A stretch of 63,810 nt of DNA from Saprospiraceae bacterium (lineage in GTDB: Bacteria; Bacteroidota; Bacteroidia; Chitinophagales; Saprospiraceae): positions 1 to 63,810 of the forward strand of contig JADLHE010000005.1 of the NCBI GenBank assembly GCA_020848965.1, read 5' to 3'. Position 1 is the first letter of the stretch. Each line of letters opens with the position of its first letter. This document shows positions 18,210 through 63,810 of this stretch, piece by piece. Under the pieces are notes generated by a model that saw nothing but the letters and a program-made list of their open reading frames with translations, did no database searches and had not been told where the DNA came from. A program made the position numbers and the translations under genes.

Positions 18210-18369
18210 AATGGTTCGTGAAGTGTCGGGTTTAAATTTTCAGGGAAGAACCTGCAATACTCATTTTTGGAAGGGTTGATTTGCTATCAAAGCCATTTCA
18301 AAAATGCCGTCATTTCATTTGCCGTAGAAGTTCCGTGAAACCTGAAACTTTAAACCTTTACGAACCATT
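18210..18369. repeat. ~160-bp palindromic MITE/REP-like element, copy 1
   Basis: Termini AATGGTTCGTGAAG... and ...CTTTACGAACCATT are inverted. The arms are built from GGTTT / AAACC 7-nt-periodic words. The element ends 2 nt from the stop codon at 18371. Confidence 0.6.
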
Positions 18370-18787: not shown

Positions 18788-19462
18788 TCATGCTTGGTCG
18801 TTTTCCAGCTCCACATTTTCGAGGTACCCGGTCGCACGGAAGTAAAAGCCAGCGACCAAGCCCATTGCGAAGCCACCGATATGCGCCCACCACGCCACGC
18901 CGCCGCCCGATTCACTGGCCATTGCCGAGGTGCCATACGACCATTGCTGCAAAATCCAAAGACCAAGAAATATCCATGCGCTGATGCGGAAAGGAAAGAT
19001 GATGAATAGCATCTTGATGCGGGAGGTAGGGTGCATGACCAAATAGGCCCCCATCACCGCCGAAATGGCCCCGCTGGCCCCGACCATCGGCATTTCGCTG
19101 TGCATGTTGAAGTAGATATGCGAAAACACCGCTACCAGCCCACCGAGAAAATAGAAAACGACGAATTTGAAGCTGCCCACTGTCGCCTCGATATTGTCGG
19201 CAAAGACCCAAAGGAAGAGCATGTTGCCGATGAGGTGCCACCAATCGCCGTGCATGAACATGCTGGTGAAGAGCGTGAACAGGTCTTGACCACTGGTTAT
19301 TTCGGCGGGGATGGCCCCGAAGTGAAGGTCGAGGGCGTCCTGCTGTTCGGGATTCAGGGTGACTTTGTAGATGAAACAGGCGACGTTCAGCAAAATGAAA
19401 GCGTAGCTGAAAAAAGGAAAGTGGCCGCCTTTTACTTGGTCATCGCCAATAGGGAAAATCAT
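18788..19462 (-). CDS. rhomboid-family intramembrane serine protease
   Basis: ORF 18788..19519; the ATG at 19462 gives MIFPIGDDQ. Motifs HGDWWHLIGNMLFLW, GASGAISAVMGAY (GxSG) and HIGGFAMG. Confidence 0.85.
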   Translation of the reverse strand: MIFPIGDDQVKGGHFPFFSYAFILLNVACFIYKVTLNPEQQDALDLHFGAIPAEITSGQDLFTLFTSMFMHGDWWHLIGNMLFLWVFADNIEATVGSFKFVVFYFLGGLVAVFSHIYFNMHSEMPMVGASGAISAVMGAYLVMHPTSRIKMLFIIFPFRISAWIFLGLWILQQWSYGTSAMASESGGGVAWWAHIGGFAMGLVAGFYFRATGYLENVELENDQA

Positions 19463-19469
19463 GCTTTGC

Positions 19470-19541
19470 GAGGATTTGAAGATGCGTGGATTCGAGGATT
19501 CGTGCGGGGGGCATCTCAAATCCTCGCATCTTCAAATCCTC
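19470..19541. repeat. 17-bp perfect inverted repeat built from GAGGATT(T/C) octamer words, between two minus-strand genes
   Basis: GAGGATTTGAAGATGCG (19470-19486) and CGCATCTTCAAATCCTC (19525-19541). The spacer contains further GGATTCGAGGATTC / AAATCCT words. Confidence 0.85.
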
Positions 19542-19553
19542 AAATCCTCACTA

Positions 19554-19910
19554 TTAAAGGTCCCAGAAAGACCGTGGACGGTTATAGACTTTGATAGTGT
19601 CGGAGATGGTCTGCCAGAAGTACCAGATGACCACACCGGCCACGGGCAGATAGGCCAGTTCGCCTACGAAGCGCATCCACAGCGGTAGGCTCACGGCCAG
19701 CACGATGGCAGTCTTCACGTAGTTCAGCCGCTTGATATGGCTATATACATATATAAGGTGGATGGCGCTCGCCATTTGCCAGATGCCCAGTGCCACGAGC
19801 ATGGTGTTCGTGCTGCGCATGCCCGTTGCGAAGAAGGCCAGCAGCACAATGGCCACTATCAAAACGGCCTGCCCCAGCAGGTCAATCTTCATCCTGAATT
19901 TTGAAATCAT
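19554..19910 (-). CDS. membrane protein (about 4 TM), unknown function
   Basis: 118-aa hydrophobic ORF with an ATG start. Confidence 0.5.
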   Translation of the reverse strand: MISKFRMKIDLLGQAVLIVAIVLLAFFATGMRSTNTMLVALGIWQMASAIHLIYVYSHIKRLNYVKTAIVLAVSLPLWMRFVGELAYLPVAGVVIWYFWQTISDTIKVYNRPRSFWDL

Positions 19911-19937
19911 AGCAAGCTATCTTTGCGGCTTCCTAAA

Positions 19938-19995
19938 GGTTACTGGTCAATGCTTATTGGTCGTTAAAGACCCCAATGAACAGTGGCTAATGACC
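19938..19995. repeat. GGTCATT-family 7-nt-periodic word array with an inverted half
   Basis: GGTTACT GGTCAAT GCTTATT GGTCGTT AAAGACC CCAATGA ACAGTGG CTAATGA CC. Confidence 0.6.
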
Positions 19996-20019
19996 TTCTA
20001 AGAGTCAAAATTACCAAAA

Positions 20020-20601
20020 ATGCCCATTACTCCCGACCTCGTTTCCGAACTGATTCGCAAAAGGCGGTCAATTTTCCCGAAAACCTACAATGACAAGCCG
20101 ATACCCCGGCCCCTCATCGAAGAGGTGCTCGAAAATGCCAATTGGGCACCCACCCATCGCCTCACCGAGCCTTGGCGTTTCAAGGTCTTCACTGGCGCTT
20201 CGCTTCAACGTTTGGGCGATTACCTCGGCGATTTTTATAGAAACAACACGCCACCGGAGGAGTTTTCAGAAACCAAGTATAAAAAGTCGAAAGAAAGCCC
20301 TTTGCGGTCGGCCTGCGTAATCGCCATCTGTATGAAACGGGATGAAACGGGCAGCGTGCCGGAGTGGGAAGAACTGGCCGCCGTGGCCTGCGCCGTGCAA
20401 AATATGTGGCTAACCTGTACTGCCCACGGCATTGGCAGCTATTGGAGCACCCCGAAGGCGGCCCTTGTAGCCGATGAATTCCTAGGCTTGGGCGAAGGGG
20501 AACGCTGCCTCGGTCTCTTCTACATGGGCTACCATGACCTACCCGACTTGCCCGGAAAGCGGTCGCCCATTTCGGAGAAAACAACTTGGATACTTGAGTG
20601 A
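20020..20601 (+). CDS. nitroreductase-family protein
   Basis: RRSIFPKTY...NWAPTHRLTEPWRF is typical of the NAD(P)H nitroreductase fold; 193 aa. Confidence 0.75.
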   Translation: MPITPDLVSELIRKRRSIFPKTYNDKPIPRPLIEEVLENANWAPTHRLTEPWRFKVFTGASLQRLGDYLGDFYRNNTPPEEFSETKYKKSKESPLRSACVIAICMKRDETGSVPEWEELAAVACAVQNMWLTCTAHGIGSYWSTPKAALVADEFLGLGEGERCLGLFYMGYHDLPDLPGKRSPISEKTTWILE

Positions 20602-20632
20602 GAAATGGGCTGTGAGGTTTGGGTTAAGGGTT

Positions 20633-20677
20633 GCGAGCGGATTACTCGAAACTCGAAACTCAAAACTCAAAACTTCT
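20633..20677. repeat. ACTCGAA/ACTCAAA heptamer array with GCGAGC head, 5 nt upstream of the pabB ATG
   Basis: GCGAGCGGATTACTCGAAACTCGAAACTCAAAACTCAAAACTTCT. Near-identical to 62774..62813. Confidence 0.85.
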
Positions 20678-20681
20678 AAGG

Positions 20682-21980
20682 ATGACGAGGCTTTCCGAAA
20701 TATTTCCCCTTCCAATCGGCCATGATTTCAAGCAACGAGCCTTCCGCTGGGCGAGCCAGTTCGAGGTGTCTTGCTATCTGGACAGCAACGGCTACCAAGG
20801 CGTCGTCGGCAGTGAGCATGATTGTCTGTTGGCGGTTGGTGTTGCTTCGCAATTGCTGCTAAAAACCGAAGCTGGTGCCTTCAATGCGCTGAAAAATTAC
20901 GTGGACGGCCACCAAGACTGGCTTTTCGGCTACCTTACCTACGACCTGAAGAACGACGTGGAACCCCGTCTTTCTTCAAAAAACCACGATGGCATTGGCT
21001 TCCCCGCCCTGCATTTTTTCCAACCAGCGGTGGTCATGGAGATTGCGCAGCAAAGTGTCACCATTCACAGCCTAACAGATTTGCCGCAGCTACTCTACAA
21101 AACCATCAACAGTTTGCCACATACAGTACGGGTTGGCGCAATCCGCAATCCGCAATCCGCAATCCGCAATAGAATACACAAGGCCGATTACCTAGAAACC
21201 ATCCAAGCCATCCGCCAGCACATCCTTCGGGGCGATATTTACGAGATGAATTTTTGCCAAGAATTCTTCGCAGAGGATTGCCTGATTGATGCCCCTGCCG
21301 TTTTTCAAAAATTGAACGGCCTTGGGAAAGCTCCTTTCTCAGGTTATTACCGCCTTGCCGACCGCCACCTACTTTGCGCCAGCCCTGAGCGGTTTTTGAA
21401 AAAAATAGGCAGTAAGCTCATATCGCAGCCCATCAAAGGTACCCGCCGCAGGGGCCGTACCGTCGAAGAAGATGCCGCATTGCGCCAGCAACTCTACCAA
21501 AGCCAGAAAGACCGCTCCGAAAATGTGATGATTGTTGACCTCGTTCGCAACGACCTCGCCCGCTCCTGCCGGGCAGGTAGCGTGCTGGTGGATGAACTGT
21601 ACGGCATTTATCCGTTCGAGCAGGTGCTCCAAATGATTTCGACGGTGAGCGGCGAGCTGTTGCCGGACGTACATCCCGTGGACGCCATACGCCGCTCCTT
21701 CCCGATGGGCTCCATGACCGGGGCGCCCAAGGTGCGCAGCATGGAACTGATAGAGCAGTACGAACAGACTAAACGGGGACTGTATTCCGGGGCGGTAGGC
21801 TACTTCACCCCGCAGGGCGATTTTGACTTCAATGTGGTTATCAGAAGTATCCTCTACAACGCCGCCGACCGTTTCCTGAGCTTCCAGGCTGGCGGGGCCA
21901 TCGTCTTTGATTCGGAGCCGGAAAGTGAGTATGAAGAGAGCCTTCTCAAGGCTCAAGGCATGTTCAAGGTGCTGTCTTGA
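20682..21980 (+). CDS. pabB: aminodeoxychorismate synthase component I (chorismate-binding enzyme family)
   Basis: ORF 20631..21980; the ATG at 20682 gives MTRLSEIF. Motifs PIKGTRRRG, VRNDLAR, SFPMGSMTGAPK and GGAIVFDS. Confidence 0.8.
   Translation: MTRLSEIFPLPIGHDFKQRAFRWASQFEVSCYLDSNGYQGVVGSEHDCLLAVGVASQLLLKTEAGAFNALKNYVDGHQDWLFGYLTYDLKNDVEPRLSSKNHDGIGFPALHFFQPAVVMEIAQQSVTIHSLTDLPQLLYKTINSLPHTVRVGAIRNPQSAIRNRIHKADYLETIQAIRQHILRGDIYEMNFCQEFFAEDCLIDAPAVFQKLNGLGKAPFSGYYRLADRHLLCASPERFLKKIGSKLISQPIKGTRRRGRTVEEDAALRQQLYQSQKDRSENVMIVDLVRNDLARSCRAGSVLVDELYGIYPFEQVLQMISTVSGELLPDVHPVDAIRRSFPMGSMTGAPKVRSMELIEQYEQTKRGLYSGAVGYFTPQGDFDFNVVIRSILYNAADRFLSFQAGGAIVFDSEPESEYEESLLKAQGMFKVLS
21137..21171. 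repeat. heptamer array CGCAATC x~5 inside the pabB CDS
   Basis: Read directly. Encodes GAIRNPQSAIRN. Confidence 0.9.
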
Positions 21981-22722: not shown

Positions 22723-22727
22723 TATTA

Positions 22728-24005
22728 CTAAATACCTTCCAACTCCCGCACCGCCAACCAGCTCATCAGCCCCATGCCCACCAGCAGGCTGTCTTCGTCC
22801 ACGTCGAAAGTATCGGTGTGGATGGGCGAGGTGATGCCACGGGCCACATTGCCCGTGCCAAGGCGGTAAAAACAGGCGGGAATCACTTGGGAGTAATAGG
22901 CGAAATCCTCCGCCGTCATGCGCATGGGCAGGTCAACCACGTTTTCTTCGCCCAAATACTCCACGGCAAACTGGCGGCTGCGCAAGGTGAGCGCCTCGTC
23001 ATTTTTCAGGAATGGATAGCCTTTCATGATATGGAAATCGCAACTGCCGCCCATGCCCTCGGCAATGGATTCGGCCATTTTTTTCATTAAAATATGCGCC
23101 TTGGCACGCCAAGCTTCGTCCATGGTGCGGAAGGTGCCCTCCATTTTCACCTCATTGGGTATGACGTTGGTGGAGCCGCCCGTCGAATTGATTTTGCCGA
23201 AGGTGACCACCGATGGCACAATGGGGTTGCAGTTCCTGCTCACGATTTGCTGCAGCGCAACAACGATATGGGACGTGATGAGCACTGGGTCAACGGCATC
23301 GTGCGGTACGGCACCGTGGCCGCCTTTGCCTCGCACGGTCACATACAACTCGTCGGCACTGGCCATGAACATGCCAGGGCGGAAGCCCACCTTCCCCGTT
23401 GCGAGTGCGGGCAGTACGTGCTGCCCGATGATATGTGCTGGAGTAGGGTTTTCCAAGACGCCTTCTGCAATGAGTATGGAGGCACCGCCCGGCAACCGCT
23501 CTTCGGCGGGTTGGAAAATCAGCTTGACGGTTCCTTCTATTTCGCTCCGCAATTCGTGAAGGATGCGGGCCACACCGAGCAGCGAGGCAGAATGCACGTC
23601 GTGTCCACAGGCGTGCATAACCCCCTCTTTTTGAGACTTATAGGAGACATTGTTGGCCTCGGCGATGGGCAGTGCATCAATATCGGCCCGCAGGGCAATG
23701 GTCTTGCTCGCCGGGTTTTTACCTTCGATATAGGCCACCACGCCGTGCTCGCCCCAACCATGCTCGTGCCTTATTCCGTAGTCATGTAGTTGCTGCGCAA
23801 TGAACTTCCCGGTCTCCACTTCTTGGAACGAAAGCTCCGGGTGGCTGTGCAAATGGCGGCGTATGGCCACGATGTCGGGGTGGAACTTGGCGGCCAGTTG
23901 TTTGATTCTCTCTTTCAAGTTGAAGTATTTTCTACAAAATACGGCCAAGTCGAGCAGTTTGATTGGTTTTTTTAATAAAAAATGCGCTCGGAGGTCAAAA
24001 ACCAC
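22728..24005 (-). CDS. M20-family amidohydrolase (N-acyl-L-amino-acid amidohydrolase type)
   Basis: IRRHLHSHPELSFQE and MHACGHDVH motifs. The true start may lie downstream of the track start. Confidence 0.8.
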   Translation of the reverse strand: MVFDLRAHFLLKKPIKLLDLAVFCRKYFNLKERIKQLAAKFHPDIVAIRRHLHSHPELSFQEVETGKFIAQQLHDYGIRHEHGWGEHGVVAYIEGKNPASKTIALRADIDALPIAEANNVSYKSQKEGVMHACGHDVHSASLLGVARILHELRSEIEGTVKLIFQPAEERLPGGASILIAEGVLENPTPAHIIGQHVLPALATGKVGFRPGMFMASADELYVTVRGKGGHGAVPHDAVDPVLITSHIVVALQQIVSRNCNPIVPSVVTFGKINSTGGSTNVIPNEVKMEGTFRTMDEAWRAKAHILMKKMAESIAEGMGGSCDFHIMKGYPFLKNDEALTLRSRQFAVEYLGEENVVDLPMRMTAEDFAYYSQVIPACFYRLGTGNVARGITSPIHTDTFDVDEDSLLVGMGLMSWLAVRELEGI

Positions 24006-43319: not shown

Positions 43320-43730
43320 ATGAAAAAGGATATTCCAGAATACAAAGTGGAAGAACTGGCCATCGCTATTTTGCCGAGGATTGAAGACGGCATCCAGGAC
43401 AACGAAATGTGGGACGTTTATCTGGTGAACCTAAAAGCGGACACCATCGAGAACGTGCTGATCAACTCCCGTGGCTACGGCGAGATAGATGGTGAGCAGA
43501 TGAAAACGACCATTCTGCGTCATTTTTTCAATGAAGTCGGGCCTCAACAAGCCCATCTGATAGAACCTATCCAGACCAAACTGTTCGATATTGCAAACGA
43601 ATATTGGGTCAGCTTTACCTACGATGGCTACATGTACGACAAACGCTATGTGTTTGTCAGGGGCAGCATCACCGAAGACAATTTCACGACCATCCCCGTG
43701 CTGGAGCGAAGAGGCGTAATGATAAAGTGA
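43320..43730 (+). CDS. hypothetical protein
   Basis: ORF 43284..43730 has a TTG start; the ATG at 43320 gives MKKDIPEYKV. No motif I recognise. Confidence 0.5.
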   Translation: MKKDIPEYKVEELAIAILPRIEDGIQDNEMWDVYLVNLKADTIENVLINSRGYGEIDGEQMKTTILRHFFNEVGPQQAHLIEPIQTKLFDIANEYWVSFTYDGYMYDKRYVFVRGSITEDNFTTIPVLERRGVMIK

Positions 43731-54871: not shown

Positions 54872-56557
<1,686 letters not shown>

Positions 56558-56637
56558 CAATGATAAATGATGAATGATGAATGATGAATCCTCACGGCAC
56601 ATCATTTATCATTCTATCATTTATCATTCATCATTTG
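56558..56637. repeat. AATGATG heptamer array plus inverted TCATCATT-type array forming a long imperfect hairpin between atpD and atpC
   Basis: CAATGATAAATGATGAATGATGAATGATGAATCC ... ACATCATTTATCATTCTATCATTTATCATTCATCATTTG. Confidence 0.85.
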
Positions 56638-56645
56638 AATAAAAG

Positions 56646-62554: not shown

Positions 62555-62586
62555 ATTGCGCCGTATTGCATAAGCGGTTAAGTTTG
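62555..62586 (+). promoter_or_regulatory. candidate promoter for the pheA leader region
   Basis: ATTG (62555-62558), 20-nt spacer, TAAGTTTG (62579-62586). The leader-1 ATG is 19 nt downstream of the -7 box. Confidence 0.35.
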
Positions 62587-62604
62587 CCGCATAATCGAAA
62601 TCAA

Positions 62605-62661
62605 GATGAATCTGTATCCGAACAATTTTTGGTTTAGCTTTTACTTTTACGGTCAATCGTA
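62605..62661 (+). CDS. candidate leader peptide 1: MNLYPNNFWFSFYFYGQS
   Basis: Own reading. 18 codons, 8 of them F/W/Y. About 12 nt downstream of a candidate promoter. Followed by an antiterminator/terminator pair. Confidence 0.55.
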
Positions 62662-62711
62662 ACGGGGCTAAAGCATTTTGTTCTTCAATCAGGTTTGAAA
62701 ATAAAATCAAA

Positions 62712-62737
62712 GAGTCCCGCTTGCGGGACTTTTTTTT
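62712..62737 (+). terminator. intrinsic terminator (attenuator 1) after leader peptide 1
   Basis: AGTCCCG-CTTG-CGGGACT followed by a long T-run. Confidence 0.7.
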
Positions 62738-62773
62738 TGCCCTTATTCAAAAAGACAAGTGATGAGCGATGAT

Positions 62774-62813
62774 GCGAGCATACTCGAAACTCGCAACTCA
62801 AAACTCATAACTT
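62774..62813. repeat. ACTCGAA-family heptamer array with GCGAGC head, 12 nt upstream of the leader-peptide-2 ATG
   Basis: GCGAGCATACTCGAAACTCGCAACTCAAAACTCATAACTT. Near-identical to 20633..20677. Confidence 0.85.
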
Positions 62814-62824
62814 TTTCCGCAGCC

Positions 62825-62884
62825 ATGTCGCCTAACCAAGTTAACTTTTTCTGGGGTTTTTATTTTTTCTGGGGTACTCCTTAG
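62825..62884 (+). CDS. candidate leader peptide 2: MSPNQVNFFWGFYFFWGTP
   Basis: Own reading. 19 codons, 8 of them F/W/Y. Followed by GGGGACTTT and a strong terminator that ends about 15 nt before the pheA ATG. Confidence 0.6.
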   Translation: MSPNQVNFFWGFYFFWGTP

Positions 62885-62922
62885 GGGACTTTTGGTTTGC
62901 TTTTTTGTGAAAAAGAAAAACG

Positions 62923-62954
62923 AAAGCCCCGCAATGCCGGGGCTTTTTTGTTTT
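62923..62954 (+). terminator. intrinsic terminator (attenuator 2) immediately upstream of pheA
   Basis: AAAGCCCCG-CAATGC-CGGGGCTTT followed by TTTGTTTT. Confidence 0.75.
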
Positions 62955-62968
62955 ATAAATAATTGAAA

Positions 62969-63810
62969 ATGAGCATAGTAGAAACAAATATCGGAAGCGA
63001 GGCCACTGCCGAAGTGGAGGCACAGCCAAAGCTCAAGGTTGCCATCCAAGGCGTGCCCGGTGCTTTTCACGACATCGCTGCCCGGCACTTCTTCGGCGCC
63101 GACCGGGTGGAAATCGTGGCAGCCCACACTTTCCGCCAACTCGTTGAACAAGTGGAAAGCGGCGCTGCCGACACCGGCCTCATGGCCATTGAAAACACCA
63201 TTGCTGGTAGCATCATCGGTAATTACCGATTGCTCACGGCCAGCAAACTGCGGGCAGTCGGAGAGGTTTACTTGCGCATCCGGCAGAACCTAATGGCACT
63301 GCCCGGCCAGCGAATCGAGGACCTGTGGGAAGTACACTCGCACCCCATCGCCATCGCCCAGTGCGACGAGTTCTTTGCGCAGCACCCACACATACGCCTC
63401 GTGGAAATGGAGGACACCGCCCTGAGTGCCCAGCGCATTGCGCAGCAGCAAATCAAAGGCGTTGGAGCCATCGCCAGCAGCCTCGCCGCCAGCATGTACG
63501 GCCTCGACCTGCTCGCAGAGAGCATCGAAACCAACAAGCTGAACTTCACCCGCTTCCTCGTGCTGGAGCGCATGGCTGAAGTTCAGACAACCACCAATGC
63601 CGACAAAGTTTCCCTCTTCTTCTCCCTCTCGCACGAGGTCGGCAGTCTGCACAAGGTGCTCGCCGCCCTCGCCGCCTACGGTGCGAACTTGACGAAAATC
63701 CAGTCCGCCCCCATCGAAGGACGGCCTTGGGAATACTTCTTTTTCGTTGACTTCGTCAATGAAGAAGGTGCCGAGTGGCAAGCAGCAGTTGAGGCGATTC
63801 GGCCTTTTAC
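62969..63810 (+). CDS. pheA: prephenate dehydratase, first ~280 codons (runs off the right edge)
   Basis: Absent from the ORF track because there is no stop. Own translation: MSIVETNIGSEATAEVEAQPKLKVAIQGVPGAFHDIAARHFF...GLMAIENTIAGSI...NFTRFLVL...SLFFSLSHEVGSLHKVLAALAAYGANLTKIQSAPIEGRPWEYFFFVDF (PDT plus ACT domain). Confidence 0.88.
   Translation, partial: MSIVETNIGSEATAEVEAQPKLKVAIQGVPGAFHDIAARHFFGADRVEIVAAHTFRQLVEQVESGAADTGLMAIENTIAGSIIGNYRLLTASKLRAVGEVYLRIRQNLMALPGQRIEDLWEVHSHPIAIAQCDEFFAQHPHIRLVEMEDTALSAQRIAQQQIKGVGAIASSLAASMYGLDLLAESIETNKLNFTRFLVLERMAEVQTTTNADKVSLFFSLSHEVGSLHKVLAALAAYGANLTKIQSAPIEGRPWEYFFFVDFVNEEGAEWQAAVEAIRPF

Follow-up and report, generated by a model that had tools for sequence, protein, structure and literature searches.

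The window analysed here is one contig, 63,810 nt long, of the assembly of an uncultured Saprospiraceae MAG (5.83 Mb in 623 contigs, 85% complete), whose nearest public relatives are likewise uncultured Saprospiraceae MAGs. A sequence-only reading had noticed nearly the same motif directly upstream of two genes in this window, here called site 1 and site 2, and had offered two explanations: one reused word of a repeat system, or a shared cis-element for chorismate-branch genes.

At site 1, a nitroreductase-family gene (20020..20601, plus strand; Pfam PF00881, E 7.6e-29) ends with a TGA stop codon at 20599-20601 directly upstream of the motif, which is followed by the gene for a PabB-like chorismate-binding enzyme (20682..21980, plus strand; Pfam Chorismate_bind, E 1.2e-80). 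The best NCBIfam match of this protein is pabB (TIGR00553), with 298.7 bits and thus under the equivalog cut-off of 328, and the gene probably encodes aminodeoxychorismate synthase component I. Its coding region contains a heptamer array of its own, (CGCAATC)x4.9, which TRF places at 21137..21170 on the plus strand, in a linker at about codon 150; the word is other than that of site 1.

Site 2 lies upstream of pheA, a prephenate dehydratase gene (62969..63808, plus strand) that is truncated by the window end and is recognised by Pfam PDT (E 1.4e-54) and ACT domains and by the NCBIfam prephenate dehydratase model. In the upstream region, 62579-62953, a promoter-like block, TTG...TAAGTTTG, is followed by a tandem pair of Phe-rich leader peptides, and each leader has a terminator of its own. 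All of these features are on the plus strand. The sequence TAAGTTTG (62579..62586) is a putative Bacteroidota-type -7 motif upstream of leader 1, in a block conserved in relatives; we take it to be a promoter from the Bacteroidetes TAnnTTTG consensus. Leader peptide 1 (MNLYPNNFWFSFYFYGQS and stop; 62607..62663) is followed by terminator 1 (62713..62740; GAGTCCCGCTTGCGGGACT then a T-run), the stem of which was detected on the minus strand and the T-run read from the sequence. Leader peptide 2 (MSPNQVNFFWGFYFFWGTP and stop; 62825..62884) is Phe-rich and is followed by a predicted terminator 2 (62922..62953). Both leader peptides are conserved in 11 genomes. The arrangement looks like tandem attenuators in a Bacteroidota lineage.

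Both motif copies were confirmed in sequence and in position. Copy 1, GCGAGCGGATTACTCGAAACTCGAAACTCAAAACTCAAAACTTCT, spans 20633..20677 and copy 2, GCGAGCATACTCGAAACTCGCAACTCAAAACTCATAACTT, spans 62774..62813, both on the plus strand. TRF describes each as a period-7 array of 4.4 copies; the (ACTCRAA)x4.4 array of site 1 covers 20644-20674 and the array of site 2 covers 62782-62812. Site 1 is made up of GCGAGC, GGATT and then (ACTCGAA)2(ACTCAAA)2 ACTTCT, and site 2 of GCGAGC, AT and then ACTCGAA ACTCGCA ACTCAAA ACTCATA ACTT. Common to both are the GCGAGC prefix and (ACTCRAA)x4, and the copies differ by a 3-nt indel 3' of GCGAGC and by two to three substitutions. The motif ends 4 nt ahead of the pabB ATG (20682) at site 1, and 11 nt ahead of the ATG of leader peptide 2 (62825) at site 2.

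Partly complementary words upstream of each copy, which had also been reported, are real, and each site folds as one hairpin. The site 1 hairpin (20610..20680, plus strand) has a G-rich 5' arm, GAGGTTTGGGTTAAGGGTTGCGAG, a loop at about 20638-20643 and the ACTCRAA array as its 3' arm. It fills the nitroreductase-pabB spacer, its stem reaching from about 10 nt past the nitroreductase stop codon to about 3 nt ahead of the pabB ATG. The site 2 hairpin (62757..62813, plus strand) pairs the 5' arm AGTGATGAGCGATGATGCGAG with the ACTCRAA array as 3' arm and sits between terminator 1 and the leader-2 ATG. At both sites the 5' arm is a degenerate array complementary to the 3' array, and the hairpins are imperfect. 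Cut tightly, site 1 folds into a single hairpin of -23.4 kcal/mol (z -3.43; none of 200 shuffles equally stable) and site 2 into a single hairpin of -16.0 kcal/mol (z -2.67); wide 100-nt folds give only a modest z of -0.95 to -2.2, so that significance holds only for the tightly delimited hairpins.

Familiar functional classes do not account for the arrays. They do not read as intrinsic terminators, as no T-run follows site 1 and the real terminators at site 2 are separate, conserved stems. Nor do they read as promoters: the count of promoter-like sequences equals the shuffle expectation. Rfam gave no match over the site 1 motif and nothing at gathering score anywhere in the window. At site 2 it gave only weak Phe_leader matches below gathering, which cover the leaders and not the array (26.7 bits at 62660-62738 in the leader 1 region; 35.7 bits at 62843-62952 in the leader 2 region). 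A gapped pattern spanning site 1, meant to reveal strain-level differences in copy number, had no match in metagenome contigs.

The arrays belong to a system that runs through the whole genome. A strict tandem scan over periods 4-12 returned 184 period-7 arrays and at most 60 for any other period, while shuffled sequence gave no arrays at periods of 6 or more. TRF lists 775 period-7 rows in the genome, which fall into recurrent word families with about 190 canonical words, including AATGATG (87), AACTGCC (66), AGGGATG (61), AATCCGC (42) and AAAACTC (36); ACTCRAA arrays of at least three units number 55. For a census we used the 585 period-7 arrays with at least 2.8 copies. Although about 90% of the genome is covered by ORFs, 475 of these 585 arrays (81%) lie outside long ORFs, and for 33% of them an inverted partner lies no more than 70 nt away; at random positions this was so for 2 of 585. 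The closest relative, G002, has a similar period-7 excess (78 arrays in 400 kb), and the excess is absent from a genome of another family in the order. Exact (ACTCRAA)3 is distributed patchily within the genus and has one match only outside it. Together, these counts demonstrate that hairpins in which an array faces its inverted partner occupy hundreds of short intergenic spacers in this Saprospiraceae genus.

The window holds other members of the system. A hairpin of AATGATG arrays in the atpD-atpC spacer (56555-56645) folds with -34.3 kcal/mol (z -7.4), and an octamer-word hairpin at 19460-19556 folds with -44.2 kcal/mol (z -7.5); these two are much cleaner members than the two ACTCRAA sites. 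A 137-codon ORF at 43320-43730, which has arrays on both sides, gave no Pfam match and is not recognisably PF05635.

How alike the two copies are depends on the comparison. Even with three mismatches allowed, the window contains the 27-nt core TACTCGAAACTCGMAACTCAAAACTCA just two times; the complete 5.83-Mb assembly contains it no more often, and it was found in none of 100 shuffles. The proper null for the likeness of the two sites is the repeat family, not random sequence. Among the 55 ACTCRAA arrays, the pair formed by sites 1 and 2 ranks 9th of 1485 pairs in similarity, and the two are mutual best partners; they are therefore a sub-variant pair inside the ACTCRAA family, not a unique element. 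A signature of GCGAGC-N(2-5)-TACTCGAAACTCG occurs at these two sites only within the assembly. It might be argued that two low-complexity, A/C-rich stretches resemble each other by chance, given that tandem repeats of one word necessarily look alike and that two of 55 arrays in one 64-kb window are not unusual (about 0.6 expected). The empty shuffles speak against this, as does the finding that only these two places agree in the GCGAGC prefix, which is not part of the repeat, and in the order of their unit variants. Their common origin in one family is evident, and we give chance resemblance next to no credence.

Closeness to gene borders is a rule of the arrays at large. Within the ACTCRAA family, the outer array end lies at most 30 nt from the ATG of a long same-strand ORF in 16 cases, and about 15 nt or less from the stop codon of a convergent gene in about 20 cases. 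When all words are taken together, 133 arrays at most 30 nt upstream of an ATG have a sense strand with more C than G, and 10 have one with more G than C; for arrays just downstream of a stop codon the figures are 191 with more G and 39 with more C. The commonest distance is 3-9 nt from array end to ATG, and 0-6 nt from stop codon to array start. Thus, closeness to start codons is generic to the heptamer arrays of this genome. Moreover, the G-rich arm is 5' and the C-rich arm 3' in all 136 skewed hairpins, including 26 of 26 in stop-stop (convergent) spacers, and the same polarity holds 13:0 in 400 kb of G002. This polarity is invariant under reverse complementation.

Comparison with relatives shows both arrays to lie in insertions. 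The synteny of the nitroreductase gene and pabB is kept throughout the genus. In ten genus members with 66-78% PabB identity, the spacer consists of TAA, about 12 nt and TTG, with no array. An array ahead of pabB is present only in this genome (G000), G002 and G014, the latter two with 86-88% identity to G000; the insertion ends with ...CTCGMAACTCRAAACTCRAAACTTCTWARRATG, and unit number and 5' arm differ among the three. The pabB start codon is ATG in exactly these three array-bearing genomes and an aligned TTG in the ten with the spacer of about 12 nt. The change from TTG to ATG may be a compensation for lost translational coupling.

At pheA, the whole region from the promoter-like block through leader 1, terminator 1 and leader 2 to terminator 2 is nearly invariant across 11 genomes. 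From terminator 1 to the leader-2 ATG there are about 15 nt and no array in 8 of these 11. The same spot carries a 60-nt ACTCRAA hairpin in G000, (CCTGAAA)n in G014 and a short remnant in G002, and ACTCRAA is found at pheA in G000 only among the 11 genomes. The alignments show both sites to be insertions; the corresponding spacers of most relatives measure about 12-18 nt. They also show that neither the conserved attenuators nor pabB depend on the arrays.

Words also turn over in place. The pabB linker near codon 150 holds a heptamer array in almost every species of the genus, with differing words: CGCAATC, CGAAATC, ACTCRAA (in G004 and G024), CCCTCAY, CAATCAC and ACCTCAT. An array is retained at this place in the linker, but its word changes, and with the word the encoded peptide. 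A syntenic comparison of G000 and G002 found gain, loss and word replacement in neighbouring spacers as well. These alignments show that arrays come and go, change their size by steps of 7 nt and exchange their words between species that are about 85% identical in DNA.

Several individual differences were seen along the window. The spacer at 19935-19997 has a hairpin of the GGTCATT/AATGACC type in G000 and one of the ATAGACA/TGTCTAT type in G002 (C1 79143-79249). Further downstream, G002 alone has a (CCCTCAT)n array, at a place where the spacer of G000 measures 11 nt (22723-22734). A 160-bp palindromic element at 18210-18369 (AATGGTTCG...CGAACCATT) is found in G000 and is absent from the orthologous G002 site; ATTATT-like sequence stands on both sides of it in G000, against a single ATTACT in G002, and it looks like an insertion with target duplication.

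These data bear directly on the proposal that the motif is a shared cis-regulatory element of a chorismate-branch regulon, whether a protein- or RNA-binding site or a translational element. What recommends it is that both copies lie just 5' of an ATG, in the same orientation, ahead of chorismate- or prephenate-consuming genes, and that they are mutual best matches in their family with a unique common GCGAGC signature. The sequence-only reading had itself named two outcomes that would speak against such an element, a lack of association of genome-wide copies with aromatic genes or with start codons, and absence of the motif from orthologues in close relatives while regulation is unchanged. The genome-wide copies show no link to aromatic genes; their association with start codons is real, and it is generic to all arrays. 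The fifteen other start-adjacent ACTCRAA arrays precede unrelated genes, namely those for a CN-hydrolase, an ABC-2 permease, a DUF4835 protein, Obg, AspRS, a histidine kinase, a phytoene synthase, an AMP-binding (acyl-CoA-synthetase-like) enzyme, a carbamoyltransferase, a NuoL-like protein, a protein with no Pfam match, an esterase, a Pyr_redox enzyme, a saccharopine dehydrogenase and an HlyD-like protein. Both sites are forward-oriented arrays a few nt upstream of a start codon, in a family with no functional pattern downstream.

Other genes of the pathway point the same way. Two of them have no ACTCRAA array upstream: on C394 a gene of the DAHP-synthase family, and on C266 the second of the chorismate-binding genes. 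The aromatic genes inspected were those with readable upstream DNA; a DAHP synthase/CM fusion on C527 is cut by the contig edge, and PDH_N was not found in the 85%-complete assembly. In relatives, the motif is absent ahead of pabB in 10 of 13 close genus members and absent from the pheA leader region in 10 of 10, where the attenuators are fully conserved; G014 carries another word at the pheA site, and a pair of conserved Phe-rich leader-peptide attenuators is already in place at pheA. Of 17 start-adjacent ACTCRAA arrays, two stand ahead of chorismate-branch genes, against about 0.1 expected if some 0.5% of genes belong to the pathway, a share that we assumed. This is nominally unlikely, but the category was chosen post hoc from one window, and the copies are not independent draws, because they have in common a signature found nowhere else in the assembly. 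The shared regulatory element thus fails on both counts that had been named against it, and we consider it refuted, or at the mildest grading largely refuted, and very improbable. The reuse of a repeat word, the other explanation offered, is the one that the genome-wide census and the lineage-specific presence of the arrays support.

A regulatory role need not be specific to chorismate. Start-adjacent heptamers might bind a general RNA-binding protein (S1, Csp or CsrA-like) or tune initiation, and thereby act as a generic post-transcriptional element. The strong rule of orientation and distance relative to start codons would fit such a role, and so would the composition of the arm: across 1013 genes without an array, the last 30 nt ahead of the ATG contain 8-17% G and an A peak at -16..-11 with no Shine-Dalgarno signal, and the ACTCRAA arm therefore has native-leader composition, A-rich and G-poor. 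The TAACTGA repeats of Beggiatoaceae are similar and likewise show no functional pattern downstream (PMC4679880). Against this, about 190 canonical words are in use, which makes a single sequence-specific binder unlikely; the ATG-side arm is base-paired in the hairpin; the arrays are dispensable at orthologous sites; and the same polarity is found in stop-stop spacers with no start codon near. We therefore regard a generic element of this kind as quite unlikely.

A different question is how the copies came to their places. All 8 PF05635 genes of G000 (on C403, C139, C463, C208, C536, C148, C317 and C461) have a G-rich array on the left and a complementary C-rich array on the right, independent of gene direction, and the flanking word families are also found as solo hairpins, for example GATTGCG/CAATCCG and GAATGAT/CATTCAT. 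PF05635 denotes a 23S-rRNA-IVS protein, an Avd-like four-helix bundle (PMC10053308). The flanks link the hairpins to IVS-like cassettes, which does not imply descent.

The hairpins could on this basis be non-autonomous, MITE-like elements, perhaps ORF-less derivatives of PF05635 cassettes, with the two copies as two insertions of one sub-family. The presence/absence differences between species have sharp borders, the same word families stand at tens of loci, and the two copies share a unique sub-family signature; the PF05635 genes between arrays of families that also occur alone add to this. Set against these points, the hairpins have no fixed termini and no constant length, since their arms are tandem units of variable number, and the two insertion sites show no target-site duplication. 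Nor are the unit variants of one arm mirrored in the other. Words differ at one site between species, including inside pabB, which in-situ turnover fits equally well, and no ACTCRAA-flanked PF05635 gene was seen in the assembly. Genes for Y1 (IS200/RAYT-type) transposases do not track array abundance, Y1_Tnp genes being equally present in array-poor relatives. On balance, MITE-like insertion strikes us as an unlikely origin that still deserves attention.

A Y1/RAYT transposase was considered separately as the mobiliser and set aside, as PF01797 occurs in 34 of 41 relatives, array-rich or not, and is uninformative. In a wider and rather doubtful version of the cassette account, the hairpins would form one polar element class, ORF-less derivatives of PF05635 cassettes, that is spread or re-templated by copying and tolerated through RNA-level processing of the stem, as rRNA IVSs are; word replacement, even inside the pabB frame, would then be re-templating and not drift.

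Taken together, we are confident that both motifs are the C-rich 3' arm and loop-proximal unit of a heptamer-array hairpin, a dispersed, lineage-specific and fast-evolving repeat with no chorismate-specific regulation. In such a hairpin, tandem copies of a 7-nt word are opposed by a degenerate, inverted array of the complementary word. The arrays end a few nt before an ATG because the ancestral spacer was short. In the dispersed-repeat model that we favour, replication slippage would lengthen and shorten the arrays, and copies of a word family would spread by a copy process, either ectopic conversion or a transposition-like one. The pheA copy is probably a recent copy or conversion, in the G000 lineage, of an older pabB-type array, because the GCGAGC-N-TACTCGAAACTCG signature is unique to both, and because the pabB copy is present in two sisters, in which another word stands at pheA. 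The fixed orientation, with the G-poor, A/C-rich arm ahead of starts, probably reflects selection for G-depleted, A-rich, Shine-Dalgarno-less leaders. Start-context selection alone does not explain the polarity in 26 of 26 stop-stop spacers; copies there may inherit the polarity of their family. On mRNA, the hairpins would have at most a generic effect; they might, for instance, separate cistrons by a stem that affects processing or stability, or form a barrier by which translation is coupled. The site 1 stem could uncouple or gate translation, or serve as a processing site.

For annotation, it follows that when two genes of related pathways in such a genome have a striking motif in common, this is no evidence that they are co-regulated, because the repeat system puts G-poor arms beside hundreds of start codons. 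The two sites are also informative in themselves. Site 1 offers a clean before/after case, in which a coupled spacer of 12 nt has become an 80-nt hairpin spacer with an ATG for the TTG of pabB, and at site 2 a conserved tandem attenuator tolerates a 60-nt insertion. Such before/after pairs could be used to gauge the effect of hairpins on operon expression in Shine-Dalgarno-less Bacteroidota. More interesting as leads than the motif pair itself are the absolute polarity of the arms, the arrays within coding regions and the Avd-like genes between arrays; of these, the polarity and the Avd-like genes bear on the origin of the repeats.

Several known systems resemble these hairpins in part. The GGGAATC arrays of Xanthomonas campestris and X. 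citri are about 90% intergenic and lie near a neighbouring ORF, they form 70-75 convergent pairs that are G-rich on the plus and then on the minus strand, and close species differ in the length and sequence of their arrays (Rehm et al. 2015, PMC4692102). Heptamer tandem arrays, a polarity of G-rich 5' and C-rich 3' arms and closeness to ORFs are features of both systems. Whereas Xanthomonas uses essentially one G-quadruplex-prone word, some 190 words in several large families are found here, only a few nt separate the arrays from start and stop codons, and the organism is a member of the Bacteroidota.

TAACTGA repeats occur in Beggiatoaceae, cyanobacteria and a few Bacteroidetes, mostly intergenic, forward and a few nt upstream of starts; the functions of downstream genes show no pattern, and relatives often have shorter, repeat-free spacers (MacGregor 2015, PMC4679880). 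A single word is favoured, inverted pairs are almost never seen (1 case in 170), and binding by S1, Csp or a CsrA-like RNA-binding protein has been proposed (PMC4679880). Our arrays are likewise tandem heptamers, start-proximal and forward, with no functional pattern downstream, but they use many words, at least one third of them form hairpins, and the word at the two sites is ACTCRAA.

REP/BIME sequences with RAYT transposases carry a GTAG or CGTC tag and a fixed palindrome of 20-40 bp (PMC3733652). The hairpins described here are also short extragenic repeats of high copy number, often between operon genes, but their arms are variable tandem arrays, and inspection of 37 family members by eye showed no tag. 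As in 23S rRNA IVSs, a long stem of inverted flanks surrounds the PF05635 gene at 8 of 8 PF05635 loci of this genome. The stem of an rRNA IVS is excised by RNase III. Unlike IVSs, the two ACTCRAA sites are free of ORFs, and the spacers that contain them belong to mRNA instead of rRNA.

Like the Xanthomonas arrays and the TAACTGA repeats, STRR are among the closest matches; these are tandem heptanucleotide families that Mazel et al. reportedly described in 1990 in heterocystous cyanobacteria, and long heptameric SSRs are comparable. As in those, several families of tandem 7-nt words are scattered in intergenic DNA, here in another phylum and with other words. To our knowledge, descriptions of STRR include neither a strict hairpin polarity nor so close a fit to gene borders. 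As relayed by two later papers (PMC4679880, PMC4692102), Mrazek et al. 2007 report the heptamer as a favoured SSR unit in many bacteria, with polymerase slippage proposed as the mechanism. Both of our sites consist of at least three head-to-tail 7-nt units of a kind that is dispersed over many loci, mostly intergenic and variable among relatives. The two motifs are heptamer repeats of the STRR/LSSR type, and not a MITE, an intrinsic terminator or a member of any Rfam family.
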